Source: a virus
Taxonomy: Duplodnaviria > Caudoviricetes
Direction: 5' to 3' (one strand)
IMG/VR virus record: IMGVR_UViG_3300025120_010521
Length of the DNA stretch: 64,000 nucleotides
This document shows, piece after piece, positions 23,571-52,907 of this stretch. Position numbers and translations under genes: made by a program. The first letter of the stretch is position 1. Every line of letters starts with the position of its first letter. Under the pieces are notes generated by a model. That model was not told the DNA's origin. It did not search any database and saw only the letters and a program-made list of their open reading frames with translations.

Positions 23571-24023
23571 TTAAATTAGACTTTGAAAAGTACCCTGTTT
23601 ATTAATTGTAAGTACTTGTTTTCGGTTATCGGCATTGTCTTTATATGATATATGAACCCAGCCACTACGTGGGTCCTTGCCATTATAAAATTCAAGTATT
23701 AGCTGATCGAAGTCTAAATTGTTTTTGATCCATTCTGCTAAATCTCTATTGCTGAGAGTTGGTACTTCTATATCTGCCGCTTCTCCAAAACAATGCTGTG
23801 ATTTTTTGGAACCACCAATTGCTGTGTTTAATTTTTTACATCTATAACCTGAATTAATTACTGTAGGACCAAACTTATCTCTAACAGGCTGTAATATTTC
23901 TTCTGCAAGTGTTTGCATTTTAGAAACAATATCAGGATCTTTTGGTAAGTTATCAATACCTTTACGTAATGCTGTTTGACTTTTGCAAAGTTCTGCTAGT
24001 GAAAAATTATTAGTGAGTTGCAT
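23571..24023 (-). CDS. Peptidase M15A (endolysin-like)
   Basis: NSGYRC, SQH..GEAAD, WVHISY. Confidence 0.9.
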   Translation of the reverse strand: MQLTNNFSLAELCKSQTALRKGIDNLPKDPDIVSKMQTLAEEILQPVRDKFGPTVINSGYRCKKLNTAIGGSKKSQHCFGEAADIEVPTLSNRDLAEWIKNNLDFDQLILEFYNGKDPRSGWVHISYKDNADNRKQVLTINKQGTFQSLI

Positions 24024-24456
24024 GATTATCTTTTCCTTCTACCATGTCTCCGTATGTTTTGTAACCTGTTTTTACACTTTCATCTTTTGGATAATATATT
24101 TCACAACCATTTTCACCATCTTCAGATACTTCAATTCTTACATCACGTTTAACATACTTTTGCTTAATTTCTTTATATAAATCATCTGCCATCATTTCAC
24201 ATGACTTATAATCAAGTTCAAGTGTTTTTTCTGCATATAGTTTTTCAAGCCATCTTTTAAACTGTATAAATTCAATATCTCTATCATCATGGAATACTTC
24301 AATAGCGACTTTAAAATGAAATATATGTCTATGTGGATATCCTAAAAAACTAACATCATATTCATCACCTGTTGCAAGTTTAGGGTCATCTAATGCCGCC
24401 GGATACTTATGTATTCCTTCTTTTCTAAATGTTACCCAAATTAGTTTTTTCATCAA
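24010..24456 (-). CDS. queD: QueD-like 6-carboxy-tetrahydropterin synthase (T-fold)
   Basis: EGIHKYP, HRH, DRDIEF, SCEMMA, EVSEDGENG; FolE/QueE/TGT in the same window. Confidence 0.75.
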   Translation of the reverse strand: MMKKLIWVTFRKEGIHKYPAALDDPKLATGDEYDVSFLGYPHRHIFHFKVAIEVFHDDRDIEFIQFKRWLEKLYAEKTLELDYKSCEMMADDLYKEIKQKYVKRDVRIEVSEDGENGCEIYYPKDESVKTGYKTYGDMVEGKDNHATH

Positions 24457-24653
24457 TCTATCTCCGTTCTAACTATGTGTTTCCTTAATGCTCTAACAAG
24501 CTCTTCAATTTTATCAATACAGCCAATTAAATCTCTATCTGTTATATACTTAGATTTTTCTTTTAGCTTGTCATATTCTTTTAATGGTATTGTTACCATT
24601 GACTGCTCGTTTTCATAAGTTTTATCATGATCGTAATCATCTACACTTGTCAT
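24453..24653 (-). CDS. hypothetical protein
   Basis: 66-aa ORF with GGAGG SD. Confidence 0.6.
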   Translation of the reverse strand: MTSVDDYDHDKTYENEQSMVTIPLKEYDKLKEKSKYITDRDLIGCIDKIEELVRALRKHIVRTEID

Positions 24654-24829
24654 AAACCTCCGTTGTTATTATTTTTTAACTTATCTTTTGCTATTAGTTT
24701 TTCTTTTTTTAGATTCACTAATTCTTCTTTGGTTAACCAATCTCTAGCATGTTGTCTTAATTTTTCTGCTTCGTTTACTTTTTTCTTTAAGTTTTTATGT
24801 TCTTGCTTTAGTTCTTTTGCTGTTACCAT
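24650..24829 (-). CDS. small coiled-coil protein, DUF465/YdcH-like, 59 aa (not in ORF track)
   Basis: MVTAKELKQEHKNLKKKVNEAEKLRQ...LKKEKLIAKDKL; AAGGAG SD. Confidence 0.6.
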   Translation of the reverse strand: MVTAKELKQEHKNLKKKVNEAEKLRQHARDWLTKEELVNLKKEKLIAKDKLKNNNNGGL

Positions 24830-25031
24830 TTGTACTCCTTATAAAGTCTTTTGCTGTTGGTTCTAACTTTTTTAACCTAAAACTTAATGCTTTTTTATCG
24901 CCTTTGCTTGTAACAATAACAGGCTGTCCATGTAAATCTTTTTTAATATCTTTAATTTTTGCACTGACATTTTTAAATCTACCAAGCTCAATGCTGTCAC
25001 CAACTTTCAATGTTATTGTTGTTGATTTCAT
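24795..25031 (-). CDS. hypothetical protein
   Basis: 78-aa ORF in operon. Confidence 0.5.
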   Translation of the reverse strand: MKSTTITLKVGDSIELGRFKNVSAKIKDIKKDLHGQPVIVTSKGDKKALSFRLKKLEPTAKDFIRSTNGNSKRTKART

Positions 25032-25549
25032 ACTGGCTTATCCTTTTTATATTCTTCCCAACCTGTATAGTTATTTGGAACTTTAATTGTTTCTATAGTA
25101 GTAGACCATACTCCATTATTTGTTGCTTCAAAATCTTCATCATCAAGTTTAATATTGATTGTTCCTTTAATTTTATCAATGTTAGGAACTACAATTGCAT
25201 AAGTTAAACTAAATCTTGCATGTGAAAGAAACTGTTTTATTTGATTTGGAACTGTTACAGGATCAACATCGACTGTTACATGTAGCTTTGCATTTAAACA
25301 TTCTTTAATAAGATCAAACATAGGATCTGTCCATTGTTTTTTCCAGTTTTTAAATGAATGATTGGCTCCAAAATAAATTTGTTCTATATCATGTTTAATG
25401 ACTTTGTTAACAAAATTTACTGGTGTTTCTTTTGGAACCCCAACTACAAAATATGTGTTCATTCCATAGCAAGGAGTTCTTTCAACTTCTATGCCAACAA
25501 AGTCAGTGACATTCTCTTTGATCTCTTGATTATCGTATTCTCGCTTCAT
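25028..25549 (-). CDS. hypothetical protein between queD and the TGT-like gene
   Basis: FVGIEVERTP, IYFGANHSF, KLDDEDFEATNNGVW; own sigma70 promoter. Confidence 0.65.
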   Translation of the reverse strand: MKREYDNQEIKENVTDFVGIEVERTPCYGMNTYFVVGVPKETPVNFVNKVIKHDIEQIYFGANHSFKNWKKQWTDPMFDLIKECLNAKLHVTVDVDPVTVPNQIKQFLSHARFSLTYAIVVPNIDKIKGTINIKLDDEDFEATNNGVWSTTIETIKVPNNYTGWEEYKKDKPV

Positions 25550-25584
25550 TGTACAATAATAACATACATACAGATTTTGTCAAT

Positions 25585-25989
25585 CTATATGTCGCCTTCT
25601 TTTCTATTTTCACTTTTGGCCACATTAAATTCACCTTCTGGATATCTGGCCATTAGCTTTTCTTTATTCATACTAATTACTTTGTTAGGATCAACACCAA
25701 GTGCCATACACCCTTGTGTCCAATACCACATAACATCACCAAGTTCTTTAATCATGTGTGTTTTAGTTTCTTCTGTTAGTGGCTTTCCTTGAAACACTAG
25801 TTTTTTTACAATTTCTGTAAACTCTCCTGATTCTGCTGATAATCCCATTGCCGCTGTTAGTAATCTTGGAACATCTTTATTTCCTAAATCATCTAACCTT
25901 TGTCTAAATGCTGTTGAATCTTTAGATTCGTTGCTGGTAACTTTATCCACAAACTGTGAATATTCTTTTAAATCAATCTCTGACATCAT
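25585..25989 (-). CDS. MazG-like nucleoside triphosphate pyrophosphohydrolase
   Basis: GLSAESGEFTEIVKK...KELGDVMWY...NKEKLMARY. Confidence 0.85.
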   Translation of the reverse strand: MMSEIDLKEYSQFVDKVTSNESKDSTAFRQRLDDLGNKDVPRLLTAAMGLSAESGEFTEIVKKLVFQGKPLTEETKTHMIKELGDVMWYWTQGCMALGVDPNKVISMNKEKLMARYPEGEFNVAKSENRKEGDI

Positions 25990-26206
25990 CTTCCTCCATT
26001 TGCTCTTCTACTTTGTCTACAAGTTCTTTTACGTCCTGTTGCCATAAAATTCTATCTTGTGGTATTGCTTTAATTAATTCTTTAACTGTTTTTTTTAGTT
26101 CGTTGTACTTGTACTTCATATTGGCTGATTCATTTTTATATTCATTTGCCATATATTCCGCTGTGTATCTCATTTGTGCTTCTTTGTTTTGCCAATCTGA
26201 TGACAT
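25973..26206 (-). CDS. hypothetical coiled-coil protein
   Basis: 77-aa ORF coupled to the TGT-like gene. Confidence 0.55.
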   Translation of the reverse strand: MSSDWQNKEAQMRYTAEYMANEYKNESANMKYKYNELKKTVKELIKAIPQDRILWQQDVKELVDKVEEQMEEDDVRD

Positions 26207-27732
26207 TATACAGTTTCTAACACCTTTTCCAACTCTTCTAATTTTACATCATTTGGATCACCTAGATCGCCATCACCCATTGAGCTTTGTGTATCAACAT
26301 CAAATAGATTAGTGAAGTTGTTACCAGATTGTCCAGTCCATCTCACACCTCTTATGTCATGTAAGAATGCTTGGTTGTCTTCTAACATCTGCATAGGAGT
26401 TTCTGACTTGAAGAAATCTTCAATGAAAGCATTAAAGTAAAGTACATTTCTAGGACACCAGTCACTAAATTCTGCTGATGTTTCTTTTTGTTTTACTTTA
26501 CGCCAGTGTCTGTAATCTGGCTTGTGTATAGATGATTCAATATCAGTAATTTGATTTGCTTTTTGTACAATCTTAATATGTTGATTAACATTATGACCCA
26601 TCATCAATGCATAAGCAAATGAATCCCAAGATGTTTTACCTTCTTTGCCTACCTTGTTTAAATCACCAGGCCCATACCAACAAATATCACCAATAGTAAG
26701 CCTTCTGCCAATCTCCGACTCCCATGGAAACGGTATAGTAGAAAGTTTTAATGCTTTACTATCAGTTGCTTTGTCCATAATATATGACCATCGCTTGTTA
26801 GTATGAACCGGTGAAGTATATACCAAACCATGTGCTGTTGCCACAAACGCACTTGCACTATCATAAGATACTGTCAGGTTTGGATTTACATGCTTTCTTA
26901 GTTGCCTTTGAATTGACGTTAAGAAACAAGCCCAATCTAATTTACTTGTACCAAGAAAGTGTATCCAATCTCTGTTATCAAGTAATTTAGAATCACGTAA
27001 TATAATTAGGCGTCGGAGAGCCATTGTCATATCACACATATTGTTTCCGCCAAATGCCCAACCTTCAAATGGAAAATGCTTCACAGCATCATACCATACG
27101 TCTCCAGTTGGAATATCAAAGCCTTGAAGCACGTTCAGAAACTTTGTTTGTCCAAGTCTATGTTTTAAAAAATATTCATTGTTATGTACTGTACCTGAAA
27201 TACAATCACCATACGATTTCAATCCTGTCTTAGGGCTGTGTGTGGCATCACTTGCCCAACTAGGAATATCTAACACCATTGACCAATCTGCTGTAAGTTC
27301 TAACCAATGTAGAATCTTATTACGCATTGTGTTTGCAGATTTGCCTTTGAAGTTTTCCCAATCAAATTTTAGTATGCCTTTACCAATTTGATATCCACCA
27401 CTGTCACCTACAATAATAGTATCTTTTTTATTTCTTGTGTGAAACATTGATTCGTTCACAATAGATTTTTCAACATCTAGATGAGCGTGGCCGGCTGAGT
27501 ATAAGCCATATTTGTAATTGAAGTAACCTTTTTCTTTGTTAAGATAGTTTAGTCCTTCAATACCATTTTCAAATCCTTTTGGGATTCTATCATCTGGCAC
27601 AAACTGTTTGTCAGTTCCGCCTGTTTGTTGTTGCTTACTTACATAAGTTTGATAAAAGCCACTAACTGCTGGTAAAAACACAGCATAGTCTTTGTGGCTG
27701 GCTGTTAGATCTTCTCCGTATGGTTTTGACAC
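26206..27732 (-). CDS. tRNA-guanine transglycosylase-fold protein (DpdA-like deazaguanine insertase)
   Basis: DSGGYQ, LDIP, NVLQG, GWAFGG, IHFLG, SYDSAS, GHN in TGT order; next to the clamp and PolB. Confidence 0.8.
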   Translation of the reverse strand: MSKPYGEDLTASHKDYAVFLPAVSGFYQTYVSKQQQTGGTDKQFVPDDRIPKGFENGIEGLNYLNKEKGYFNYKYGLYSAGHAHLDVEKSIVNESMFHTRNKKDTIIVGDSGGYQIGKGILKFDWENFKGKSANTMRNKILHWLELTADWSMVLDIPSWASDATHSPKTGLKSYGDCISGTVHNNEYFLKHRLGQTKFLNVLQGFDIPTGDVWYDAVKHFPFEGWAFGGNNMCDMTMALRRLIILRDSKLLDNRDWIHFLGTSKLDWACFLTSIQRQLRKHVNPNLTVSYDSASAFVATAHGLVYTSPVHTNKRWSYIMDKATDSKALKLSTIPFPWESEIGRRLTIGDICWYGPGDLNKVGKEGKTSWDSFAYALMMGHNVNQHIKIVQKANQITDIESSIHKPDYRHWRKVKQKETSAEFSDWCPRNVLYFNAFIEDFFKSETPMQMLEDNQAFLHDIRGVRWTGQSGNNFTNLFDVDTQSSMGDGDLGDPNDVKLEELEKVLETV

Positions 27733-28475
27733 TATTGACTCCTAGCAGGTAGGATATAGTCATAAGTTGCTGTGCCAGAATCAATTGATATCTGCATAGC
27801 ACCTTGATCACTAAATGACATACTTGCTTGTGAAGTATCACTTAATTTCAAAATACTCAATACCTGTGCTAGTGGCCAAGCCCAACCTTTAGTTAGTTTG
27901 CCTTGCACATTTTGAGCAAATGGAATTTCAACTCTGTCATTTGCGCCATCTCCAATATAAAACTTTAGTGTATCACCATCTGTTTTTGCAACAAATGTTG
28001 GCTCAAAGCCACCCATAATACCATTAAAGTAAGTCAAGTCTTTAATATTTTGTTGTGTTGGCTGTACTGTAATATCCCATTCAACACCTTTAAACTTGAT
28101 TGTTTTTAATTGTTCTTCAATTAAAGAACTTACCATGAATCTATAGTTTGCAGTATAACCACCTGGCGATGTAAATTTTAGCTCTTCTGCTGTTTCTACA
28201 CCATCTCTTGTGTTTGTCATAACTTCGATGTTTGCACCATCTTTGCCATATGCTTCATAGTTTAAGTAGCCTGATAGTACACCAAGTCTACCCATTCCAA
28301 TTAATCCTGGAACGTTGTCTAATTTATCTTTTAATTTACCTTTTAGAACTACTGTTCTATCATCATCCATTGCTTCAATACTTGTGCCTTCATCTGTGCT
28401 TTCAAGTTTTACTGCTTGAATAAAGCCCAACGAATGAGTATGTTTTACAATGTCTAGTAATACATCTTTTAACAT
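27732..28475 (-). CDS. sliding clamp (processivity factor)
   Basis: 247 aa, position beside PolB, clamp-like pattern; RFC-type loader in the window. Confidence 0.7.
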   Translation of the reverse strand: MLKDVLLDIVKHTHSLGFIQAVKLESTDEGTSIEAMDDDRTVVLKGKLKDKLDNVPGLIGMGRLGVLSGYLNYEAYGKDGANIEVMTNTRDGVETAEELKFTSPGGYTANYRFMVSSLIEEQLKTIKFKGVEWDITVQPTQQNIKDLTYFNGIMGGFEPTFVAKTDGDTLKFYIGDGANDRVEIPFAQNVQGKLTKGWAWPLAQVLSILKLSDTSQASMSFSDQGAMQISIDSGTATYDYILPARSQ

Positions 28476-28527
28476 ATTTTTTTACCTCCGACGTTTGTTA
28501 TTTTTACTAATATAACACTTATTTAGG

Positions 28528-29301
28528 TTATCTGTCAACAACTTTATTTGTATAATCCACTGCAATTTTAATATCAATCCATTCAGTTGGTTTTAACGTT
28601 GTTTTCCACCCTAGTTTCTTTAATTCTGAATTATCTGCTGTATTATCGTCAGCTTCTGCATCTTGGCCTTCTTGTATAGGAACATCATATCCTGCATGTT
28701 TTACTATATCAGATACTTTATATCCTTGGCCAGTTCCAACTTCGTAAGTTGTATTTCTATTTTCAGTTCCTTGTTCAACAAATATCATTATTGCTGAAAC
28801 AACATCTTCTACATAAATTAAATCTCGTATGTGTTCTGTAGCAAATTTAACTGTGCCATTGCGTATTCTTGACATTAGCATTGTATCTCTGGCTCCGTCA
28901 CCAAATACTGTTGTAAATCTTAGACCAACTTGCCCAGGATGTGCTACTGCCTCCATTGCTTTTTTGCTTGTGCCATATGGTGACTTCCACCATGCATGTA
29001 CACAAGATGAAGATGCATATACAACAGGAATATTATTTTTATGACATAGGTCAAATATGTTTTTACTATATTCTACATTAGTTGTCCAGTATAATTCTGG
29101 TTCTTTTAAACTACGTCTTACATCTGCTATTGCGGCCAAATGTACGACAAAGTCAATATCTGCTGGTATAGTAGCAGGAGAAAGGTCTTTGATATCTTTC
29201 CCGTGTGCTCTATCCCATTCAATAACTTCATGTCGACCAGCTAGTCGTTGGACTAGATGTTTTCCAATAAATCCTGTACTACCTGTTACAATTATTTTCA
29301 T
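28528..29301 (-). CDS. NAD-dependent nucleotide-sugar epimerase/dehydratase
   Basis: TGSTGFIG, HLAA, ASSS, YGTSK. Confidence 0.9.
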   Translation of the reverse strand: MKIIVTGSTGFIGKHLVQRLAGRHEVIEWDRAHGKDIKDLSPATIPADIDFVVHLAAIADVRRSLKEPELYWTTNVEYSKNIFDLCHKNNIPVVYASSSCVHAWWKSPYGTSKKAMEAVAHPGQVGLRFTTVFGDGARDTMLMSRIRNGTVKFATEHIRDLIYVEDVVSAIMIFVEQGTENRNTTYEVGTGQGYKVSDIVKHAGYDVPIQEGQDAEADDNTADNSELKKLGWKTTLKPTEWIDIKIAVDYTNKVVDR

Positions 29302-32012
29302 GCTGACTCAAATAAACTTTCAAATACTGATGATGTTTTTGTTGATTCTAAATCCCAACCTAATTCACTCATTAAGTTACTAACTTTTTGATCAATAATA
29401 GATTGTTCCATACCATCATGATCAAAAGGAAGTTCTTTAAACCATTTTGGAATATTTAACTCATCAATTGGATATGCAATAGATGTAAAGTTCATTGGAT
29501 TTGCTTTTAATTTACACACAATAACCTTTTGTCCATCCATAATTGGCAATGAATATAAATCTTTATATGCACTACGCATTGAATTCCAATTAATACTTGC
29601 TCTTACATGTCCTGGCATTACTGGTTTTTTAATTTTGCCATTTGCACCACCATTAGCCATACGTGATGTAGCACGTTTATATTTTTCAATATCTTGCACA
29701 TATTTGGTTAAGTTGTTTACACGTTTTGGAGTGCCTTTTTCCCAACCAGGTCTGTCTGCAAACTTACGTTTGAATTCTTGTATTGCTGTTAATATTTCTT
29801 TTTTATCAACACCTGTTAAAACTTGTAACAATATGTCTGATAAAAAGTTTTGTACAAAATCAGGAGTATCAGATCTTTTTAAATCAAGCCCCATTGCTTT
29901 TAGTTTACCTGGCTTGTCAACATCTTGCCTATTACCTTCTAAATCATATATTAATGCCGCATATCTTTTCTTTGTGATAAACAATCCTTTTGATGCAACC
30001 ATTTCTCTACCACCTTTAATAATTTCACCATTCTCACGTGGCACATTTGTTGCTTTCATCATAAATGGTGGAAATGATTTGTTTACTTCATCTGCTATGC
30101 TATCATATAATTCAATAACACTTTCTTTAGTCCACGGCAATGCACCACTTTTAACATCTTCTTTAACCATTGGATATGCTGAGAAATAAACAGAGTCTGT
30201 ATCACCATATATAATTGATTTACCTACATGATCATACTCACCTGTCATTATTTGATTTGTGATTGCACCCATGTGTTTTGTGATTGTTCTACCTGTGAGT
30301 GTAACTGACTGACCTATTCTCTGATCAAAAAATCTACATCCAGGATTTAGTATTGCACCGTATAAACTATTCAAGTTAATCTTTTTAACAAGTTGTCTTT
30401 TATCCCAAAACTCTATTTGTTCTTTATCACCACTTGCAATAGCTTCACGCATTTTGCCTTGTAATACTTTTCTTTCTGCAAACCATGTTTCTAACAATCC
30501 AGGAATAACTGCTTTGGTAGTTGTATCAAATATTGTACCATTTGCTGACAAACACCAACCTTGATTTTGATGGAATACAATTGCATATACTTCTGCTCCA
30601 CTCATTTGTTCTGTAGTTCCATCTTCAAAGTCAACAATAATTTCTACTCCGCGATCTTTTTCCATAACTGCTGTGTACTCAATTGTACCAAACATTCCTT
30701 CCCATGCATCTGCGGCAGACTTTTTTTCTTTATAAATTTTGTCATTAATATATTTTTCTGTATGTGTTGGTCTTAACTGTCCAACTATAGTTTCTGGACC
30801 CATATTCAAACATCTAATTACACTAGGATATAGTGAATTAATATCAATTGATGCAATCCAATCATGCAAACCTTTTTTAGGTTTTGCTACATAGGCTCCA
30901 ACTGCCGCACCAGATGAGTGAGGCTCTCTATATGGTCTATTTGGAATAATAAGTCCACGTTTATGTGCTTCATTTACAATTGCTTGTTCTGTTTGTGCAA
31001 CTGCACCCATCGTTGTTTGTAGTAACACAGTATTAGAGTGTGCTAACACATTTGCTAAATCAATAAATTTTAATTTGTCATCAAGTTTTGATAGTAGTGC
31101 AACGTCTTGTCTTGAATAAGCAATAAATTTTTCAAAGTCTTCATTGTAAAGTTGATCAAGTGTTCCTTCATATGGAACTTTCTTTTCATTAACTTCATAC
31201 TCACCAATTGCATCAAGTCTATATGAGTGCATTTCATGATATGTGTATTTCCTATATAATTCCAAATAATCTAAATGTACACGGCCAAAGAAATCAAATG
31301 TTTGTTGTTCATTACCAAACTTTGTAAACATTCTTTCACGTGGATATAAGTCCCACAAACTAAAACGTCTAACATCATCTTTGCTCAATACCATTTCAGT
31401 TCTGTTTACAATGTATGGAATATCAAAACCTTCACTATTCCATCCGCTTAATATATCTGCATCTTCAATTAAATGTAAGAATGTGTTTAGTAATTGAGCT
31501 TCCGTTTCACACAATACAGTATTGTCAAACTTTTTAGCAATTGAATCTGCCATTTCAAATGGCATGTCTTTTGGAGCAAGACATAGTGTAATTAAACTAT
31601 CTAACCAATTAAGATGTACACTGATTGCTGTAATACGTTGATGCGGATCATTTGGTCTTGCAAATCCACGATTCTTATCAAAGTCTACCTCAATATCAAA
31701 TAGTGCTACATGTAGGTTTGGTGCTTCTTTTTCAATATAATTTTCTTCTAAGCATCTAAAAACAGGATTGAGATCTGCTTCATACAATCGCTGACCTTCA
31801 TATAGTTTCTTTTCTCGTTGAAATGATTTATTGTTTAGTGTTTCGAACTTACTTAATGGGCGATTATGTATTGATGTGTGTTGCCCATCTTTATCTTCAT
31901 AATAGAATCTATATGTTGTTGGAAAAGTTTTGTATATTCTTTTTCCATCAATACGTTCTACTATATTGATTTGATCTTTATCTCTATTTAAATATGCGTC
32001 TACGTAACTCAT
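29298..32012 (-). CDS. family B DNA polymerase, unsplit
   Basis: Exo motifs DIE, NSEGFD, YSRQD; pol motifs DINSLYP, KINLNSLYG, YGDTDS, KKRYA. Confidence 0.97.
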   Translation of the reverse strand: MSYVDAYLNRDKDQINIVERIDGKRIYKTFPTTYRFYYEDKDGQHTSIHNRPLSKFETLNNKSFQREKKLYEGQRLYEADLNPVFRCLEENYIEKEAPNLHVALFDIEVDFDKNRGFARPNDPHQRITAISVHLNWLDSLITLCLAPKDMPFEMADSIAKKFDNTVLCETEAQLLNTFLHLIEDADILSGWNSEGFDIPYIVNRTEMVLSKDDVRRFSLWDLYPRERMFTKFGNEQQTFDFFGRVHLDYLELYRKYTYHEMHSYRLDAIGEYEVNEKKVPYEGTLDQLYNEDFEKFIAYSRQDVALLSKLDDKLKFIDLANVLAHSNTVLLQTTMGAVAQTEQAIVNEAHKRGLIIPNRPYREPHSSGAAVGAYVAKPKKGLHDWIASIDINSLYPSVIRCLNMGPETIVGQLRPTHTEKYINDKIYKEKKSAADAWEGMFGTIEYTAVMEKDRGVEIIVDFEDGTTEQMSGAEVYAIVFHQNQGWCLSANGTIFDTTTKAVIPGLLETWFAERKVLQGKMREAIASGDKEQIEFWDKRQLVKKINLNSLYGAILNPGCRFFDQRIGQSVTLTGRTITKHMGAITNQIMTGEYDHVGKSIIYGDTDSVYFSAYPMVKEDVKSGALPWTKESVIELYDSIADEVNKSFPPFMMKATNVPRENGEIIKGGREMVASKGLFITKKRYAALIYDLEGNRQDVDKPGKLKAMGLDLKRSDTPDFVQNFLSDILLQVLTGVDKKEILTAIQEFKRKFADRPGWEKGTPKRVNNLTKYVQDIEKYKRATSRMANGGANGKIKKPVMPGHVRASINWNSMRSAYKDLYSLPIMDGQKVIVCKLKANPMNFTSIAYPIDELNIPKWFKELPFDHDGMEQSIIDQKVSNLMSELGWDLESTKTSSVFESLFESA

Positions 32013-33037
32013 TCAACATACACCTGGCCAAATTTATTGCTAATAAAAGTTTGCCATTTAACATCTTCTTGTTTAACAAAACCCTCACCTGTAAGCTCAT
32101 CCCTACAGTATGATACTATATTAGCACAAACTCCAGATGCTGTCGACCTCTGAATTGCACTCATACCATCTTTTCCAAAAATATTTTTCTGGTATGACTT
32201 TTCTAATAGTTTTCCGTTCTTCATTCCAATTACTTTAATCAACATAACTACAACATCTTCTGTAGTATATGGAACTGTTTGATCAAATAAGTCACCTATT
32301 TTATCTTTGTTACTTTTTAGGTTTAAATCCTGTAATAAGAAGTTCATTTTATCTCTATGACCAGGATATCTAATTGTTTTATAGCTTAATGTGTTTACTT
32401 TTCCATCAAACGTTTCACACATTGTTGCTACGCCACCTGATGTGTTAAATGCTTCATATCTTCTGCCATCGATATAAATTCTTTCGACTCCATCTAACGG
32501 TGGTATTTTTAATTTTTTGCCGTCTGCAATTACATCACATAAATTACAATACTCGTTTATCAACCCATTTGTTGACCAGGTTAAGTAATAGCTCATTTCG
32601 TTTGAAGGATAACGTGGTAATGCACCAACCCTCATTTGTACATCATGTGCTTCATCAAAATCTTTAATTAAGTTACTTCCAATAATATTAACTGCACCAG
32701 GAGCCAATCCACATTGGGGCATCATAAAAGTTTTAGTATCTAAATCTTTAATATAGTCAGTTACTTCAACGTCTTCTGTTAAATCAAAGTATGCTACACC
32801 TAATTTTGAGGCCACATTAGCAATACCTTTATTTAAATAGTAAGGGGCCGCAGAACATACTACATCTTTATTTTTTAAAAAATGTTCTAATTGTGTTTCA
32901 TTAGATGCATCTAACGAAACAACTCCATTACTTGCTATTGAATCTCCTATTACAACATTATAATTTTCTGATCGTAGTAAACTGGCGATAACTCGGCCAA
33001 TCTTTCCATTTCCTATAACTGCTACATTATTTTTCAT
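32009..33037 (-). CDS. saccharopine/lysine dehydrogenase family oxidoreductase
   Basis: VIGNGKIG, YFDLTED, CGLAPG, YKTIRYPGH. Confidence 0.85.
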   Translation of the reverse strand: MKNNVAVIGNGKIGRVIASLLRSENYNVVIGDSIASNGVVSLDASNETQLEHFLKNKDVVCSAAPYYLNKGIANVASKLGVAYFDLTEDVEVTDYIKDLDTKTFMMPQCGLAPGAVNIIGSNLIKDFDEAHDVQMRVGALPRYPSNEMSYYLTWSTNGLINEYCNLCDVIADGKKLKIPPLDGVERIYIDGRRYEAFNTSGGVATMCETFDGKVNTLSYKTIRYPGHRDKMNFLLQDLNLKSNKDKIGDLFDQTVPYTTEDVVVMLIKVIGMKNGKLLEKSYQKNIFGKDGMSAIQRSTASGVCANIVSYCRDELTGEGFVKQEDVKWQTFISNKFGQVYVE

Positions 33038-33040
33038 ATA

Positions 33041-43766: not shown

Positions 43767-43774
43767 GATATCTC

Positions 43775-45854: not shown

Positions 45855-45964
45855 TTTTTATTGTCTTTTCTATGGGAAATATAATTACATTATCAAATTT
45901 AAGCATTTCTATTCTCCATTTTAAGTATTCTATATAAGTCATTATAACATATTTAGCGGTAATG

Positions 45965-46333
45965 TCAAGTGGTCTTTTGAAGAAATCTTTCACTTAAATC
46001 TCTTAATTCATCGTGTGTAAATGAACTTTTCCAAGTATTTGCTTTGTGTGTTAATAGTTGAATATTGTCTACTGTATATCCTTTTGTTGGATCTATCCTA
46101 TCAATTGTACACGATTGTGGGTTACACCATTTATTTTGCCATTTTCCTCCTCCACGTACAAATTCTAAATCATCTCCAGTTATAGCACATTTCCAATTTT
46201 GTTTTTGGCCAATATTATATACATCAATTTTAGTTATTTCACTTGACCAAGATTTTTGGCCTCTGTTCTTAGCACGACTGATATTCTGTTGGATAAATTT
46301 TAATTTAGTACTATCCATATTAGCAATGTGCAA
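45965..46333 (-). CDS. HNH-like nuclease domain protein
   Basis: CAITG...TIDRIDPTKGYTVDNIQL...N..K. Confidence 0.65.
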   Translation of the reverse strand: MHIANMDSTKLKFIQQNISRAKNRGQKSWSSEITKIDVYNIGQKQNWKCAITGDDLEFVRGGGKWQNKWCNPQSCTIDRIDPTKGYTVDNIQLLTHKANTWKSSFTHDELRDLSERFLQKTT

Positions 46334-46940
46334 TAGGATCGTGTGTAAGATTAGACATCTGTTCTAATCTAGTTGTTGGATATTTGTCTCTGTTTTTAAG
46401 AAATTCTTCGTGATGTATCATTTTACCATTAACAAGGAATCCCCAATGATCACCTTCTGTTTTTTTACCCATAAAAAATATACTCCAACAAGGAATTTCA
46501 TTGCCATTTTCATCTTTGGCTAATTCTAAATAGTGTAAATCTTCTGCTTTTCTAAATCTTATACTGCCAGGACCCCTCCAAAATTTACCTTTAGGAGTAT
46601 GTTCCCAATATCCACCTTTTAATATTATAGCACCCCAATTCCAAGGATGACTATGTAGTATTGGTTCATCACCTAACATCACTTTGTGTAATGTAAAGTT
46701 AAAAGGAAAGTTTTTTCTATCTTTTAAAAACAAATAGTATCTCACAAGATACTCTCGTGTATTATCTCTGTTGTAAATAATTCTTTTTCTATCTTTAAAT
46801 AATGTTGATATCAATAACACTGCAAATACTCCCACACATGCAATAAACATAATTGTTGTTTTAAATACCTTGACAACTGTTTCTGCTACATCTACTTTTG
46901 AAACTATTTCTTCTGCTTTAAACCAAATATCTTTGATCAT
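46320..46940 (-). CDS. putative cupin-fold protein
   Basis: LHKV...LHSHPW...GGYWE...HYLEL His pattern. Confidence 0.5.
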   Translation of the reverse strand: MIKDIWFKAEEIVSKVDVAETVVKVFKTTIMFIACVGVFAVLLISTLFKDRKRIIYNRDNTREYLVRYYLFLKDRKNFPFNFTLHKVMLGDEPILHSHPWNWGAIILKGGYWEHTPKGKFWRGPGSIRFRKAEDLHYLELAKDENGNEIPCWSIFFMGKKTEGDHWGFLVNGKMIHHEEFLKNRDKYPTTRLEQMSNLTHDPIAHC

Positions 46941-47863
46941 GTTCCTATCGCATTACCAAAAAGATAAACGTGAACTCTCGCCGCGACATTGTAACCACGT
47001 TTGAAAGCCTTTTCGGCAACCTTTCCTGCACCTGCTGTTTGTTCTTCTTCTCTTGCACCTGTAGGCATAACCCATACTGGCCAATCAACACCTTGTGCTT
47101 TAAAAAGTTTAATTACTTCTTCCATTTCTTCCCACTCTCTATCATCAGGACCTACCACAAACTTTAATTGTCCTTTGCTAGAAAGTTTTCTATACTCTGC
47201 CACAATCTCAGGCTTGATTGCTTTTTCTCTTTTCTCACCGGATACTGTAAACAGTTTAGGACTACAACTAAAGAATATTTCTGTATCAATTCTGTTAACC
47301 CAATCAATAAATGGTTGTCTAAGTTTTTGTGTGCCATTAGTTTCAAATGTCATCGATCCAGGCAAGTTACCTTGTCTTTCAAGTTCTTCATATATGCCTA
47401 TGGTTGCTGTTTGTCCTGTAACCATTAATGGCTCTCCACCTGTGATACACAAATGTTGACTTTGTCCTGTTACTGGGTGTTTAAATAATCCTTGTGGATT
47501 ACTTTCATTCTTCATTATATCAACTATTTTGTTTGCCATCACAGTTGGTGTTTCTTGACCCATCAGCTCTTTAAACTTCTTAGCCCATGTGTAACTTGAA
47601 TCACAACCTTTGTCCCAAACAGGCAAGTCTTCAACTTTGTCTACACTAGATACATCAAAATTTTCAAATGGCAAATCATATGTGTCTGGGTTGGTTGGAT
47701 CTATTTGCCCAAACCCATTGCATTGCAAATTGCACAAGAAGAAACGTATCCATGCTGTTGGAACACCTGTGTAATGTCCTTCACCTTGAATACTGTGAAA
47801 TATTTCAGAATAATAGAACTTCTTTTCTACAGTTTTACCAAACTCATGTTGTGCTAATGCCAT
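46937..47863 (-). CDS. queE: QueE-like 7-carboxy-7-deazaguanine synthase (radical SAM)
   Basis: SEIFHSIQGEG..TG.P..W.RF, CNLQC...GCDS, ITGGEP, ETNG, SPKL. Confidence 0.85.
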   Translation of the reverse strand: MALAQHEFGKTVEKKFYYSEIFHSIQGEGHYTGVPTAWIRFFLCNLQCNGFGQIDPTNPDTYDLPFENFDVSSVDKVEDLPVWDKGCDSSYTWAKKFKELMGQETPTVMANKIVDIMKNESNPQGLFKHPVTGQSQHLCITGGEPLMVTGQTATIGIYEELERQGNLPGSMTFETNGTQKLRQPFIDWVNRIDTEIFFSCSPKLFTVSGEKREKAIKPEIVAEYRKLSSKGQLKFVVGPDDREWEEMEEVIKLFKAQGVDWPVWVMPTGAREEEQTAGAGKVAEKAFKRGYNVAARVHVYLFGNAIGT

Positions 47864-47911
47864 ATTATATACTCCATTATACTACCTATTATATAGTATT
47901 TAGGCAATATG

Positions 47912-48463: not shown

Positions 48464-48489
48464 GCTCCTCTCCTTTATTGTTTGACTAT

Positions 48490-49002
48490 CTATATAGCCC
48501 ACCACTCTTCCCATGGATATACTATCCATTGAGGATGGTCGATTTTATTGATGAACTTTGATACATAATCAACATCACCAAATTTGCTTGGTTCATTTTC
48601 AACCAATACTGCAAATCTTATATTGTCTTCCCAATTAATTTCTGACTTGTTGTTTTTAATAATTTTACCACTGTTATTCCAATCTTGTTTAATCCAAGAT
48701 AATGTTTCACCGGTATCGTTAATGTCGTCAACGATTAAAATCTTTTTACCATCAAGGGCATCTTGGGCCATCCACTTATTTGATTCTGGTTGAACAGCAT
48801 GATCTCGTAATTTAATTTCTAATGTATGCATTGGCACTTCAAAGTAATGACTTATCATTGTTGCAGGAATTAATCCACCTCGTGTTAATCCTACTATGTA
48901 GTCTGGTTTAAATCCATCACCGTCAACTGCAATTTGTTGGATAACATCTGATGTCATATCTTCAATGTCTTGCCAACTATAATAAATTTTTTTATCTGCC
49001 AT
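48490..49002 (-). CDS. type I (purine-type) phosphoribosyltransferase
   Basis: VGLTRGGLIP, LIVDDINDTGET, WIVYPWE. Confidence 0.9.
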   Translation of the reverse strand: MADKKIYYSWQDIEDMTSDVIQQIAVDGDGFKPDYIVGLTRGGLIPATMISHYFEVPMHTLEIKLRDHAVQPESNKWMAQDALDGKKILIVDDINDTGETLSWIKQDWNNSGKIIKNNKSEINWEDNIRFAVLVENEPSKFGDVDYVSKFINKIDHPQWIVYPWEEWWAI

Positions 49003-49405
49003 CTGTTACCCTTTTCCTTAAATCTGTAGTGCTGAATCTGTGATCTCTTGTATTAAAATACAGTTCAATACCACGTTGGTTACAAGCATCTTTGCCTGTA
49101 AAATCTTTTTCTTTATATTCTTTACCTAATATTCTAACATCAATTGGTAAAGTTTGCAAGATATCAATTACATCTTTTTCTGTTTGATAAGGAACTACTT
49201 CGTCTATATATTCAACTGCTTTTAATTGTAGATACCTTTCAAACATTGTTTGAATTGGTTTATTTTTAGTATCTGGCCTATCAATTGTTGGATCGCTTTG
49301 TAGACCAACAATTAAATAATCACATTGACCTTTTGCTTCACGCAACATAGAAATATGACCTGCATGTAACAAGTCAAATGTACTAAATGTTATTCCTACT
49401 TTCAT
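48992..49405 (-). CDS. cytidylyltransferase (TagD-like)
   Basis: TFDLLHAGH (HxGH), RDHRFSTT. Confidence 0.88.
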   Translation of the reverse strand: MKVGITFSTFDLLHAGHISMLREAKGQCDYLIVGLQSDPTIDRPDTKNKPIQTMFERYLQLKAVEYIDEVVPYQTEKDVIDILQTLPIDVRILGKEYKEKDFTGKDACNQRGIELYFNTRDHRFSTTDLRKRVTDGR

Positions 49406-50180
49406 CTTTTACCTTATTATTTTTTACTGCTTGATTTAAATGAAGCCAAAAATTATTATATTCTACTGCTTCTTTTATCACAGACAATCCAACTTCATTG
49501 TTGTTTGCTGTTGTAACTAATGCATTTGTATCTTTTGGAAAACAATGTCCGCCAAAACCTCTTTCATCAGTTATGTAACTGTGGCTTTCACCTATTCGCA
49601 TATCATCTGCTACACATTCTCTCACTTTGTCAAAATTAAGATTAAGTTTTGAACACAGATCATACATTTGATTAAAGAAAGAAACTTTTGTTGCTAAGAA
49701 ACTATTTCTAAAATATTTTGATAGAATTAATTCTTCAGCACTTGCTAATTTAAATTTTAAATTTTTATTGTTGTTTGAAAAAAGTTTACTCCAAAATTCC
49801 CAGTTATCTACACTAAAATACATTGTTGTTTGTTTGTTAAAGTCTTCTATGGCTGTTTTTGCTCTCAAAAACTCTGGACTAAACGTTATGCCTTTGTTAG
49901 GATACTTTTGTTTAAGTTGTTGCCAACCTTCTAAACTAATTGTGCTTTTAATTAATATTGGCTTATCATTTGATTCATCAATGCAATCAAATACATTTTG
50001 CATATCACAAGCACCATCTTGTCTTTGTGGGGTTGATACACAAATTATTAATGCATCGTAATCTGCATCTTTAATAGTTTTATTATTGTATGCTGGATCA
50101 ACTATTGTTATTGAGTGCTCTGATAATGCTTGTTCAATTGCTTTACCAACGTACCCATATCCTGCTATAATTATTTTCAT
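49383..50180 (-). CDS. UDP-glucose/GDP-mannose dehydrogenase family; start moved to 50180
   Basis: GYGYVG, PEFLR, KYFRNSFLATK, GFGGHCFPKD. Confidence 0.88.
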   Translation of the reverse strand: MKIIIAGYGYVGKAIEQALSEHSITIVDPAYNNKTIKDADYDALIICVSTPQRQDGACDMQNVFDCIDESNDKPILIKSTISLEGWQQLKQKYPNKGITFSPEFLRAKTAIEDFNKQTTMYFSVDNWEFWSKLFSNNNKNLKFKLASAEELILSKYFRNSFLATKVSFFNQMYDLCSKLNLNFDKVRECVADDMRIGESHSYITDERGFGGHCFPKDTNALVTTANNNEVGLSVIKEAVEYNNFWLHLNQAVKNNKVKDESRNNI

Positions 50181-50464
50181 CACAATATAAACAATTGTAC
50201 TAGTGCTATTGCATTCATTATTGTAAACCAACCACATAGTATTATAACAAATGCCGCTTTACGTATAACTGCACTAATTACTCCTAATGCTGATCCAACA
50301 AAATACATTGGTATAAACAATTTAGTTGCAGGATCTAAAATTGTAAATGTTAATATTGCACTTGCTGTAATTAACAAAATTGCTTCAACCATTTCACACC
50401 AAAATGCAAGTGGTGAAAAAGTATAACTATCTTTTATAAATTTTTTAACTTTTATCATATCCAT
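50180..50464 (-). CDS. small membrane protein
   Basis: 3 hydrophobic segments. Confidence 0.6.
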   Translation of the reverse strand: MDMIKVKKFIKDSYTFSPLAFWCEMVEAILLITASAILTFTILDPATKLFIPMYFVGSALGVISAVIRKAAFVIILCGWFTIMNAIALVQLFIL

Positions 50465-50739: not shown

Positions 50740-50741
50740 CT

Positions 50742-51428
50742 CTACCTTGGAGCAAATTCTTGTTGTAATTTAATATTGTCCATAAACTCTTTTTTAGTTC
50801 CTTCAATATTTTTAAAATCACCTCTTAACACTGTGGTTTGTGTTAAACTACTGTGTGCTTTAATACCTCTGTTTTCACAGCAACCATGTGTTGCTTGTAC
50901 ATACACACCAACGTGTTCACTGCCTGTTTGCTTTTGAATTGCGTTAGCAATCATAACATTAAGTTCTTCTTGTAGTGTTCCACGTTTTGCACACCATTGT
51001 GCAATTCTTGTGTACTTGCTTAAACCTAATAGTTTAGGACCAGCAATGATACCAATGTATGCTACACCAGACACTGGCTGGTGATGATGTGAACAAACAC
51101 TTTTAAGTTCACTTCTTACAACAAGCATACCTTCATATCCATTTTCAATGTAGTTAGGAAATGCACTTGGATTAGGCATGTCTTCATATCTGCCACTCAT
51201 GATTTCGTTGATGTACATTTTTGCCATACGCCTTGCAGTATCTTTGCTGTTAGGATCTGTTTCAGTATCTATTAGTAAACTTTGTAGTACATTTTCAAAA
51301 GCAGGAACTGCCTCATCAATTAGTTGTTGTTTTTCACCTGGCTCAATATATTTAGAGATATTATCATTAGCCCAGTATCTTGTGTTGTTATCTTTTAGTC
51401 TCTGTAGAATTTTATCTTTTATTTTCAT
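50742..51428 (-). CDS. folE: GTP cyclohydrolase I; likely start 51428
   Basis: TARRMAKMY, CSHHHQP, GLSK..RI, RGTLQE, HGC...RG. Confidence 0.95.
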   Translation of the reverse strand: MKIKDKILQRLKDNNTRYWANDNISKYIEPGEKQQLIDEAVPAFENVLQSLLIDTETDPNSKDTARRMAKMYINEIMSGRYEDMPNPSAFPNYIENGYEGMLVVRSELKSVCSHHHQPVSGVAYIGIIAGPKLLGLSKYTRIAQWCAKRGTLQEELNVMIANAIQKQTGSEHVGVYVQATHGCCENRGIKAHSSLTQTTVLRGDFKNIEGTKKEFMDNIKLQQEFAPR

Positions 51429-51434
51429 TACCAT

Positions 51435-51461
51435 TCTCCGATGTTAAGGCAGTGGATTGCC
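51435..51461 (-). promoter_or_regulatory. candidate compact H-type pseudoknot / riboswitch in the folE leader
   Basis: GGCA-AUCCAC-UGCC-UUAACAU-CGGAGA; loop UCC can pair with the SD GGA. Confidence 0.45.
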
Positions 51462-51511
51462 GTTAATATTTCTTATTATAACAATTTTGTTTTGAAAATG
51501 CAAGTATTTTT

Positions 51512-51844
51512 TTAATGGTAAGAATAGTTAGCCATTGGATAGTAAATCCCATTATGATTCATTCCAAGTCTATCTTCATAGTCATCACTAATATCTGCTA
51601 TTTCAAAATATTGTCTTTTATGATGATATTCAGGTTCATGGCCAAATAATTCTAATATTTCTGCCATACTAACGTAACGTACACCTTTTTTTATTTTTTC
51701 TTTAAAGTATGTCGATAGAGAATCCATTACCTCTTGCTCTTGCCAATCAATTACGTCTGGTAATTTCATTCCGGAATCAATCTCAAACTGTAAGTGAGAT
51801 TTTCCTATTTTTTTCTTTGGTTTCTTTATTTTCTTGTTTGCCAT
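51512..51844 (-). CDS. hypothetical protein
   Basis: 110-aa ORF overlapping the glycosyltransferase end. Confidence 0.55.
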   Translation of the reverse strand: MANKKIKKPKKKIGKSHLQFEIDSGMKLPDVIDWQEQEVMDSLSTYFKEKIKKGVRYVSMAEILELFGHEPEYHHKRQYFEIADISDDYEDRLGMNHNGIYYPMANYSYH

Positions 51845-52907
51845 AATTACTAATAGTATTTACTAAATTATTTGCAGAGAAATACGTATCAGTTAATTTT
51901 TGCTCTAAATCTTTTAATTTTGGCAACTTATTATCATAATTCTGCATATCATTTTTAATCATATCAACTAGCTTATATTTGTGTATTTCATAACTGGCAT
52001 AAGAACTAGTCCAAGTTGGATCATATTTCCAAATATCATCATACATTTCCGTATAACTTAATCTATCAGGAACTAATGGCATTGCACCAACTAGTATTCC
52101 TTCGTATGGTGATATACCTAATGTTTCTTGTGTATTTGCTGAGAACACCATTTTTGCTTCTCCAAGTAAAGTATGATATTCATCTTTAGTTAATTGTTCA
52201 TCTTGACACACAATAAATTCATACTGTGGTAAATGTTTTGCTAGGTCTCTAAATATTTGTGGTTGTTTTTCAGGAGCAATTCTATGTGGAAATAAAATTA
52301 AATCACGTTTTTTCATTCCATTATATTTTTTAAGAGTATCTTTCATATACTCCATTGGCCATCCACTTTGTATAATTTTATCATTTACACTACGGACTTT
52401 ATGTGATTTGCCAAATAATCTTACGTGAAATTCTGTTGCAAAATAGTTGTGGTCAAAACATTCAAACATTGATCTTTCTGCATGTCTTACCCATGGAGCA
52501 TCTCCAATCAATCTACCTAAAAAGTCTGCTGGATCATATGAGCCGGCATGCCATAGACCATGTGTGATAACTTTGATTCCAAGTAGTTCAGACATATACT
52601 TAACATTAATAATACCAGGATGCCAAGCATCAGTAAAAATAATATGGTCGCCATCTTTAACTTCGCCTTCAGTAAAGGCTCGTGATAGTTTTTCCATTTG
52701 TGTTGATTTATAAATATTTGTTCCACCAAAGTTTAAAAAAGCACCTGGTGTTGTTGCAGGTGGAATATCGTCAGCACCGTCAATAACTCTAACTAAAAAT
52801 CCTTCATCATTTAATAATTTAGGAACGTGTGTTTTCCACTGACAAGTATATCTTGTTTCTACTGATTCTAAATCTACTATCCAAACTTTTTGTATATCTA
52901 TTTTCAT
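51783..52907 (-). CDS. GT-B glycosyltransferase (GT4-like, resembling the QTMAN/GTDC1-DUF3524 group)
   Basis: FPHRIAPEKQP, ETLGISPYE (EX7E), GAMPLVPDRLSYTEM. Confidence 0.8.
   Translation of the reverse strand: MKIDIQKVWIVDLESVETRYTCQWKTHVPKLLNDEGFLVRVIDGADDIPPATTPGAFLNFGGTNIYKSTQMEKLSRAFTEGEVKDGDHIIFTDAWHPGIINVKYMSELLGIKVITHGLWHAGSYDPADFLGRLIGDAPWVRHAERSMFECFDHNYFATEFHVRLFGKSHKVRSVNDKIIQSGWPMEYMKDTLKKYNGMKKRDLILFPHRIAPEKQPQIFRDLAKHLPQYEFIVCQDEQLTKDEYHTLLGEAKMVFSANTQETLGISPYEGILVGAMPLVPDRLSYTEMYDDIWKYDPTWTSSYASYEIHKYKLVDMIKNDMQNYDNKLPKLKDLEQKLTDTYFSANNLVNTISNYGKQENKETKEKNRKISLTV

Follow-up and report, generated by a model that had tools for sequence, protein, structure and literature searches.

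A probable DNA-modification system of the DpdL type, based on 7-deazaguanine and dispersed among the replication genes of an uncultured marine jumbo phage

What can be discerned from gene content about the DNA chemistry of an uncultured phage? The stretch of 64,000 nucleotides analysed here (the window; IMG/VR virus record IMGVR_UViG_3300025120_010521) derives from an uncultured marine jumbo phage, a distant kin of Pseudomonas phage PA5oct. On balance, we think that it encodes the greater part of a DpdL-type system for putting 7-deazaguanine into DNA, dispersed among the replication genes and including a clamp-docked transglycosylase, salvage by a phosphoribosyltransferase (PRT) and a GT4-type glycosyltransferase. 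A preliminary description, made from the nucleotide letters alone, had proposed that 7-deazaguanine modification is run from the replication module, beside sliding clamp and family B DNA polymerase (PolB), and this core idea is well supported. The system is a variant of the known DpdL-type deazaguanine system, with conserved extras that are not described in the papers we found.

Results

DpdL and the precursor genes

The deazaguanine genes are scattered over 29 kb and threaded through the replication module. Gene families were assessed with Pfam, NCBIfam, PHROG and PDB sequence searches, the family scan of open reading frames (ORFs) covering 18.5-64 kb of the window, so that the Pfam scan begins after the ORFs at 1-18.5 kb; orthology across phages was judged by blastp of all ORFs of the other loci against the window. 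Three genes bear on the making of the base:

24010-24456, minus strand: DpdL, a QueD-like T-fold paralogue, predicted to decarboxylate 7-carboxy-7-deazaguanine (CDG) to 7-deazaguanine (motif LGYPHRHIF and homology to DpdL of phiST and ACP17)
46937-47863, minus strand: divergent QueE-like radical SAM enzyme, the presumed CDG synthase, whose cluster-binding region contains a long insert (phrog_2076 'QueE-like', E 3e-54)
50742-51434, minus strand: FolE, GTP cyclohydrolase I, the first step, from GTP to dihydroneopterin triphosphate (H2NTP) (PF01227, E 2e-38, above cut-off)

The first of these had been taken for QueD, an assignment that does not hold. Its product matches no Pfam or NCBIfam family, PTPS (PF01242) included, lacks the CxxxHGH motif and has Leu in place of the QueD catalytic Cys; residues 38-46 instead read LGYPHRHIF and fit the pattern LxxxHRHxF, as do the DpdL proteins of phiST, ACP17, X1 and BUCT-ZZ01. 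This pattern is the signature of DpdL, a QueD paralogue proposed as the CDG decarboxylase on the way to 2'-deoxy-7-deazaguanosine (dDG) in Cellulophaga phage phiST (PMC10516641). The protein is 58% identical to ACP17 gp125 (E 4e-45), 34% to phiST CGPG_00067 (E 9e-17) and 61% to the DpdL of PA5oct, and a tblastn search with it lands exactly on phiST CGPG_00067 and ACP17 gp125. With DpdL in the place of the supposed QueD, 7-deazaguanine (dDG in DNA) is the base to expect, and the pathway, which had been thought to stop at CDG, would continue through its predicted decarboxylation.

The usual company of a DpdL-type gene is present as well, with DpdA, FolE and QueE in the window, QueD in a complete relative genome (G001) and no canonical QueC. 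This content equals the published DpdL-type set (FolE, QueD, QueE, DpdL, DpdA, no QueC), and thus predicts 7-deazaguanine rather than CDG.

FolE had been identified correctly, and the protein named QueE is, in spite of its divergence, QueE-like. FolE matches the NCBIfam FolE models at E 3e-39, under their equivalog cut-offs, and is 33-70% identical to FolE of other phages' deazaguanine clusters. The QueE-like protein aligns end to end with its PHROG family and is 27-42% identical to the annotated QueE of five phages, PA5oct (gp162), 2.275.O, BUCT-ZZ01, X1 and ACP17. It has no Pfam match, PF04055 included, and its matches to NCBIfam QueE (E 4e-10) and to PDB QueE 6nhl (E 1e-4), far under cut-offs, lie mainly in residues 16-49. 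Its candidate cluster cysteines, at 44, 48 and 87, are spaced unusually compared with the QueE forms aligned to it, and some 38 inserted residues separate the second from the third.

As had been stated, QueC and QueF are absent from the window, at least among the ORFs scanned. The wider search was made in G001, a complete 328-kb genome with direct terminal repeats and one of several IMG/VR contigs that are 90-99% identical to the window in protein. Six-frame searches of G001 found no canonical QueC, QueF or PF01702 TGT, and three QueC-like PP-loop paralogues that are weighed below. A single canonical PTPS/QueD (E 4.5e-14) did turn up, at a great distance from the deazaguanine module. Its neighbours, in G001 264000-282000 (locus L019), are EF-G, L11, ClpX, IF3 and the NAD synthase NadE (ORFs 2008-4077, 4840-5262, 9526-10797, 10794-11351 and 11683-12477); a QueC-like match near QueD proved to be NadE and was discarded.

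A TGT-fold candidate transglycosylase related to DpdA2

26206-27732, minus strand: TGT-fold, DpdA2-like DNA transglycosylase candidate, 508 aa, here P0002 (AlphaFold2 fold and profile comparison)

P0002 has no match in Pfam, NCBIfam, PHROG or PDB sequence searches. Its AlphaFold2 model (predicted local distance difference test score, pLDDT, 75.7), placed by Foldseek, falls among TGT enzymes, which make up all of the top 50 matches (E ~3e-6), and model residues 13-435 superpose on TGT with a VIA Z of 17.7 and a root-mean-square deviation of 5.3 A over 303 aligned residues. The TGT/DpdA-like enzyme that had been proposed at 26206, near clamp and PolB, is thereby confirmed at the level of fold. 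In an hhalign comparison with E. coli TGT (81%), D110 (GDSGGYQ), D155 (LDIP) and D291 (SYDS) fall on D89, D143 and the nucleophile D264; D110, S111, G113, Q115 and D291 are invariant in 53 diverse homologues, and D155 is conserved in at least 90% of them.

To which branch of the superfamily does P0002 belong? Aligned with DpdA2 of ACP17, nt-1, BUCT-ZZ01 and X1, it reaches 97.2% in hhalign (E 4e-11, 186 columns) and is thus nearer to DpdA2 than to the tRNA TGT of E. coli, a comparison that is informative only with a diverse alignment from the representative search, a shallow one being uninformative. There is no BLAST-level similarity to DpdA2, and tblastn with P0002 finds only PA5oct-like phages, 2.275.O and Phosso. 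ACP17 gp123 in turn is linked by sequence to DpdA2 of nt-1 and VH7D. P0002 shares with the DpdA2 proteins of nt-1, VH7D, ACP17, X1 and BUCT-ZZ01 the motif order DSGGxQ, D-x-P, QG, HxLG, SYDS; unlike them, it is about 80-100 residues longer and carries a clamp peptide internally, before an acidic tail. From these profile and motif comparisons, P0002 is best read as a member of a sister clade of DpdA2 that would act on DNA. The clade is large, with 1,151 clusters at 50% identity in a profile search of 1.8 billion representatives and more than 5,800 clusters at 90%.

The P0002 orthologue of PA5oct is 41% identical, and in PA5oct and in loci L025 and L026 the homologue is accompanied by DpdL, QueE and FolE. 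In 2.275.O it adjoins QueF, a YhhQ-type transporter, QueC, an amidohydrolase and FolE.

A polymerase-like tail and the probable sliding clamp

27732-28475, minus strand: probable sliding clamp (gp45/PCNA-like), 247 aa (protein-language features, phrog_12062 and conserved position)
29298-32012, minus strand: PolB with the tail FESLFESA (PF00136, E 7e-38; PF03104, E 8e-20)
26290-26328, minus strand: clamp-docking-like peptide in the disordered tail of P0002, residues 469-481, core NNFTNLFD (FxxLF[DE] word as in the PolB C-terminus)

The gene for P0002 directly follows the clamp-like gene, which an epimerase gene separates from PolB. Sequence searches of Pfam and PDB gave no match for the clamp candidate; its protein-language features are nearest to the gp45 sliding-clamp and PCNA clusters (0.93-0.94), and its homologues stand just upstream of the DpdA-like gene in PA5oct, 2.275.O, L025 and L026.

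Among the minus-strand ORFs of at least 80 aa in the window, only PolB, P0002 and ClpB contain the FxxLF[DE] word in their last 45 residues. Corresponding pairs of DpdA-like and PolB tails are found in PA5oct (NSFNSLFD and HFDSLFGW), L025 (FRALF and FDQLFSFD) and L026 (FAKFF and FNKLFDF), and in ACP17 DpdA2 ends in TLDELFE and PolB in SLDDLFE. The FxxLF tail of the transglycosylase thus co-varies with that of PolB in five lineages, and the peptide is conserved in the long subgroup of the DpdA-like clade as well as in PA5oct, L025 and L026.

When the probable clamp was modelled together with residues 430-508 of P0002, the complex scored 0.64, the best of three controls reaching 0.01; the mark for such scores is reached by 51 of 78 solved complexes and by 2 of 108 mismatched pairs. 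The runs of this model share at least 40% of their contacts. In the model the clamp folds at a pLDDT of 88, and residues 469-481 lie under its interdomain loop and against its C-terminus, seated at clamp residues 40-43, 124-131, 224-226 and 241-246; the partner's pLDDT (at least 46) leaves its own fold uncertain. Because peptide-clamp complexes have already been solved, passing the mark speaks for likeness to a clamp-docking peptide, not for binding. Taken with the shared tails, the model suggests that the DpdA-like transglycosylase probably docks on the phage sliding clamp. No paper that we found connects DpdA with a sliding clamp.

A precedent is provided by the clamp clients of T4 and RB69, where gp43 polymerase, gp55 and gp33 bind gp45 through a C-terminal hydrophobic peptide. 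The arrangement here resembles theirs in placing a short hydrophobic FxxLF peptide, common to the polymerase, on a flexible acidic tail; it differs in that the client would be a base-exchange enzyme rather than a polymerase or transcription factor, and in that binding is predicted.

The same tail bears on the target of the enzyme. The best-known members of the fold family are tRNA enzymes, and P0002 might act on tRNA; otherwise FolE, the PTPS-like enzyme and the glycosyltransferase might yield an auxiliary metabolite, either a pterin bearing a sugar or a deazapurine nucleoside in free form, and a pterin glucosyltransferase (5zes, E 2e-7) is indeed among the structural matches of the glycosyltransferase. 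We regard a target other than DNA as very improbable, as P0002 is closer to DpdA2 than to tRNA TGT and sits within the clamp-PolB block with a tail in common with the polymerase, as PA5oct DNA is restriction-resistant, and as QueE and DpdL have no role in pterin synthesis.

A glycosyltransferase kept with DpdL and DpdA

51783-52907, minus strand: GT4-type (GT-B, retaining) glycosyltransferase, 374 aa, companion of DpdL/DpdA clusters (AlphaFold2 model, EX7E motif and orthology), here GT4

GT4 has no Pfam match to Glycos_transf_1 or Glyco_trans_1_4 at E 0.01, and the only family match is phrog_4356, glycosyltransferase, at E 0.0017. Its AlphaFold2 model (pLDDT 79) is closest in Foldseek to glycogen synthase, BshA, LmbT and MshA (E 1e-9 to 1e-7); every one of the top PDB and Swiss-Prot matches is an enzyme of GT4 or GT-B type (E 1e-10 to 1e-7, template modelling scores 0.5-0.64). 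The first 50 structural matches in PDB and the first 30 in Swiss-Prot do not include QTMAN, which does not in itself exclude a likeness to it. The EX7E motif reads ETLGISPYE at 261-269, and E261 and E269 are invariant in 30 homologues.

Orthologues occur in PA5oct (gp167, 44% identical), ACP17 (gp124), X1, BUCT-ZZ01, Phosso, BCSR5, BUDD, L025 and L026. The gene lies between the DpdA-like gene and DpdL in PA5oct and between DpdA2 and DpdL in ACP17, flanks DpdA2 or DpdL in X1 and BUCT-ZZ01, and in Phosso starts 21 bp past the DpdL match; DpdL is present in 18 of the 23 phage records with a GT4 homologue, usually adjacent to it. By orthology and gene order, GT4 accompanies DpdL and DpdA as a conserved partner in at least six lineages of cultured phages. 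The phiST-like phages, the lineage in which plain dDG was measured, lack it.

What would such an enzyme do? One answer is that the DNA contains plain dDG, as in phiST, and that GT4 and the sugar-nucleotide genes have another target, for instance glycans of the host envelope, a protein of the phage or a small molecule. Plain dDG is the sole product measured for a DpdL phage, 7-deazaguanine has no hydroxyl acceptor, the nucleoside diphosphate (NDP)-sugar genes are not conserved with the module, and the top structural neighbours of GT4 work on small molecules or glycans rather than DNA. Yet GT4 keeps its place between or beside DpdA and DpdL in PA5oct, ACP17, Phosso, X1 and BUCT-ZZ01, as well as the association with DpdL counted above, and the proven plain-dDG phage is the one without GT4. 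We see plain dDG as a serious candidate, although a minority one. The other answer, which we put forward tentatively, is that the DNA of these phages, the cultured PA5oct, ACP17, Phosso and X1 included, may contain a sugar-bearing 7-deazaguanine, installed at the fork by a clamp-tethered enzyme and glycosylated by GT4 from lineage-specific donors, with guanine recycled by the PRT. We found no paper describing a glycosylated purine analogue in DNA. A parallel is offered by the alpha- and beta-glucosyltransferases of T4, which place sugar on 5-hydroxymethylcytosine after replication: there as here a phage glycosyltransferase is genetically tied to base replacement, and donors seem lineage-variable. 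GT4 differs from them in its GT4 fold with EX7E, and the base would be a purine analogue without an obvious hydroxyl.

A cupin/cysteine-dioxygenase-like gene (46320-46940; phrog_4786, E 4e-30), with a 4-base overlap between its start and the stop of QueE, was considered as a hydroxylase creating a sugar handle and rejected, as it has no tie to DpdL. A homologue occurs in each of 82 unrelated phage records, most of them from mycobacteriophages, so that the gene probably lies outside the deazaguanine module.

Two cultured relatives carry further genes of this kind. In the T4-like Synechococcus cyanophage BUCT-ZZ01, two glycosyltransferase-like genes (L023 3665-5008 and 6656-7822) bracket DpdA2-DpdL. 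In the DpdA2-DpdL cluster of Xanthomonas phage X1, a PAPS-reductase-family PP-loop protein (L024 1197-1730; PF01507, E 1e-13) directly follows FolE and is another candidate tailoring enzyme of a DpdL cluster.

Phosphoribosyltransferase, MazG and sugar-nucleotide genes

48490-49002, minus strand: type I phosphoribosyltransferase, xanthine/guanine-PRT-like (PF00156, E 2e-16)
25585-25989, minus strand: MazG-type nucleoside triphosphate pyrophosphohydrolase (PF03819, E 2e-7)
25028-25549, minus strand: conserved 173-aa protein inside the module (no Pfam, PHROG or NCBIfam match; homologues in ACP17 and L026)
48992-49405, minus strand: small nucleotidyltransferase, best match heptose-1-phosphate adenylyltransferase, RfaE domain II (PF01467, E 3e-14; TIGR02199, E 2e-23, far under cut-off)
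49383-50237, minus strand: truncated NDP-sugar dehydrogenase-like protein, 284 aa, without the C-terminal UDP-binding domain (PF00984, E 3e-25; TIGR03026, E 2e-38, under cut-off)
28528-29301, minus strand: SDR epimerase/dehydratase-family protein between PolB and clamp (PF01370, E 2e-28)

The neighbours that had been listed (glycosyltransferase, NDP-sugar dehydrogenase, cytidylyltransferase, epimerase, PRT and MazG) are all present by family matches, the cytidylyltransferase as a small nucleotidyltransferase. Their standing as parts of one pathway differs: GT4 is a conserved partner across lineages, the PRT a partial one, and the other sugar-nucleotide genes are specific to this lineage.

The PRT has xanthine PRT as its best NCBIfam match (E 9e-15, under cut-off). 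Homologues adjoin QueE in PA5oct (gp163) and BUCT-ZZ01, in the latter as a xanthine-guanine PRT between QueE and QueD, and one is found in L025; there is none in ACP17, X1 or Phosso. The MazG protein weakly matches the MazG-like CGPG_00068 of phiST, which is the neighbour of DpdL there. The 173-aa protein resembles ACP17 gp122, encoded directly upstream of DpdA2 (E 3e-10), and a 183-aa ORF of L026 between the DpdA-like gene and DpdL (E 2e-23).

PRT and MazG together would also suit a pre-replicative route, in which the PRT joins 7-deazaguanine or CDG to phosphoribosyl pyrophosphate (PRPP), kinases and ribonucleotide reductase lead on to deaza-dGTP, MazG destroys dGTP, PolB incorporates the analogue, and the TGT-fold protein is an accessory or proofreading factor. 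TubE provides an analogy, coupling a deazapurine base to PRPP in tubercidin biosynthesis. The PRT is kept beside QueE in PA5oct and BUCT-ZZ01, MazG lies within the module both here and in phiST, and the complete replacement seen in DpdL phages would be easier to achieve through the nucleotide pool. However, the PRT is missing from ACP17, X1 and Phosso, every such phage has a DpdA-family gene, the published view is one of post-replicative insertion, and a clamp-docking tail suits an enzyme working on DNA. We therefore consider the pre-replicative route unlikely and retain base exchange in DNA.

The NDP-sugar dehydrogenase, nucleotidyltransferase and epimerase were examined as conserved parts of the module and rejected as such, since they have no clear homologues in five cultured DpdL phages. 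A homologue of the dehydrogenase adjoins FolE in L026, the nucleotidyltransferase is possibly a lineage-specific sugar-donor gene, and the epimerase has ADP-glyceromanno-heptose 6-epimerase as its best NCBIfam match (E 5e-21, under cut-off). In other lineages the corresponding position is taken by other sugar-type genes: L025 has GFO/IDH/MocA, ADH and DegT-like genes, PA5oct a short SDR-like protein (gp164) and BUCT-ZZ01 a second glycosyltransferase. These differing genes fit variable donor sugars and, equally, chance neighbours in a genome with genes on one strand.

Genome setting

Nearly all genes of the window lie on the minus strand, at about 32% G+C, and its content is typical of a very large phage: PolB, clamp loader, 5'-3' exonuclease, ClpB, DnaJ, deformylase, HtrA, Cpn10 and M17 aminopeptidase. 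No near-identical DNA was found in the phage collection, nor any exact 50-mer in IMG/VR, and relatives were recovered at protein level, the closest cultured kin by tblastn with P0002 being PA5oct-like Pseudomonas jumbo phages, Vibrio phage 2.275.O and Sinorhizobium phage Phosso.

Host-like proteostasis genes are dense at 34063-37656, 42663-43766, 54404-54760, 56356-56676 and 58139-59635; the set comprises ClpB, peptide deformylase, DnaJ, an HtrA-type protease with a PDZ domain, Cpn10 and an M17 leucyl aminopeptidase (E 1e-117), with an IscA-like Fe-S assembly protein alongside. The 179-aa, fragment-sized protein of 55155-55694 matches only the NTPase domain of DnaE (PF07733, E 2e-10), and Phosso has a similar 'DnaE-like' gene of 191 aa two genes upstream of its clamp-like and DpdA-like genes. 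Two further genes have no known replication role: a saccharopine-dehydrogenase-like oxidoreductase (32009-33037), directly upstream of PolB, and a short radical SAM protein of 210 aa (41769-42401), closest to SPASM/twitch maturases.

Discussion

How might these parts work together? Gene identities, folds, motifs and co-occurrence suggest a pathway in which FolE would convert GTP to H2NTP, a canonical QueD, whose gene would lie some 60 kb beyond the window if positioned as in G001, would make 6-carboxytetrahydropterin (CPH4), and the divergent QueE would form CDG. DpdL would then strip the carboxyl group from CDG to leave 7-deazaguanine, which the DpdA2-like transglycosylase would exchange for guanine in phage DNA; docking of this enzyme on the clamp would imply that base exchange follows the fork. 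The excised guanine would most likely be salvaged by the PRT (guanine plus PRPP to GMP, and back toward GTP), MazG would trim the dNTP pool, and GT4 may add a sugar to the base or the DNA, with donors from the lineage-specific genes.

Several points weigh against this pathway. The zinc site of TGT, CxCxxC...H, is not evident in P0002, of which only C351 and H380 are conserved in that part, where the profile alignments end before the zinc-site region. P0002 lacks a PF01702 match, and only 2 of 53 family members reach E 0.007, although PF01702 is also blank in genomes with DpdA2, so that this Pfam test has little power. P0002 weakly matches DpdA3 (70%, 84 columns), the one subfamily for which dDG is proven. 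The decarboxylase activity of DpdL is a prediction even for phiST, and co-expression of DpdL and DpdA of phiST or ACP17 in E. coli gave no dDG (PMC10516641). QueD was located in the relative G001 rather than in the window genome's own sequence, and 7-deazaguanine offers GT4 no obvious hydroxyl.

Finally, G001 has three divergent PP-loop paralogues with SGGxDS motifs (L015 781-1677, plus strand; L016 1495-2292, minus strand; L018 1498-2214, minus strand; 298, 265 and 238 aa), whose C-termini match QueC at 18-25 bits. They adjoin a radical SAM/SPASM enzyme and a carbamoyltransferase-like protein, and, judged by these sequence matches, could amidate a carboxylate such as CDG. If so, CDG itself, or 7-amido-7-deazaguanine (ADG) or 7-cyano-7-deazaguanine (preQ0) made by these paralogues, might be inserted and then decorated, for instance with a sugar on the carboxyl or amide, a more plausible handle for GT4, and the activity of DpdL is itself only predicted. 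However, the paralogues resemble QueC only over the last ~55 residues, the C-terminal zinc ribbon, lie 50-100 kb away among other tailoring enzymes, and DpdL is kept next to the transglycosylase in all these lineages. A carboxy, amide or nitrile product is hence quite unlikely in our view, and 7-deazaguanine made through DpdL remains the base that we expect.

The closest described system is the dDG route of phiST, which consists of FolE, QueD, QueE, DpdL, DpdA3 and a MazG-like protein (PMC10516641). The window shares with it FolE, QueE, DpdL with LxxxHRHxF, a MazG-type gene, a TGT-superfamily transglycosylase, the lack of canonical QueC and the location of genes near the polymerase. Unlike in phiST, the transglycosylase has 508 rather than 259 aa and matches DpdA3 weakly, the genes extend over 29 kb with QueD far off, and GT4, absent from phiST, the PRT and the conserved 173-aa protein are added. 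This route was missing from those with which the gene combination had first been compared. The conserved GT4, the PRT and the clamp tail are outside the published scheme. The new hypermodified deazaguanine that had been proposed may exist as a sugar-bearing base, given the tie of GT4 to the module, whereas the base expected from the gene set is dDG, already described.

Among DpdA2 phages, ACP17, X1 and BUCT-ZZ01 have DpdL, GT4 and QueE in one block; DpdA2 of nt-1 and VH7D, unlike the predicted product of this module, inserts preQ0 or 7-aminomethyl-7-deazaguanine (preQ1) at low levels. PA5oct (Wroclawvirus) has orthologues of the DpdA-like protein, GT4, DpdL, PRT, QueE (37%), clamp and PolB in a partly kept order; its module forms one compact 5-kb block, unlike the window, which adds NDP-sugar genes of its own. 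The DNA of PA5oct is reported to withstand restriction enzymes that cut at G-containing sites, a pattern suggestive of modified G; of this module the authors mention QueE and a PTPS alone and leave out the transglycosylase, DpdL, GT4 and the clamp tail (PMC12191111).

DNA with 7-deazaguanine is a recently recognised anti-restriction strategy, and its most efficient form, complete replacement of G through DpdL, has not yet been reconstituted. The parts found here outside the published scheme, a conserved GT4, a guanine-type PRT and a polymerase-like clamp-docking peptide on the transglycosylase, are candidates for what is missing, as any of them could explain the failure of DpdA and DpdL alone in E. 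coli. Since the DpdA-like clade is very abundant in aquatic metagenomes, where it goes without annotation, such DNA may be common in marine jumbo phages. Common deazaguanine DNA would affect restriction, nanopore base-calling and the bias of metagenomic libraries.

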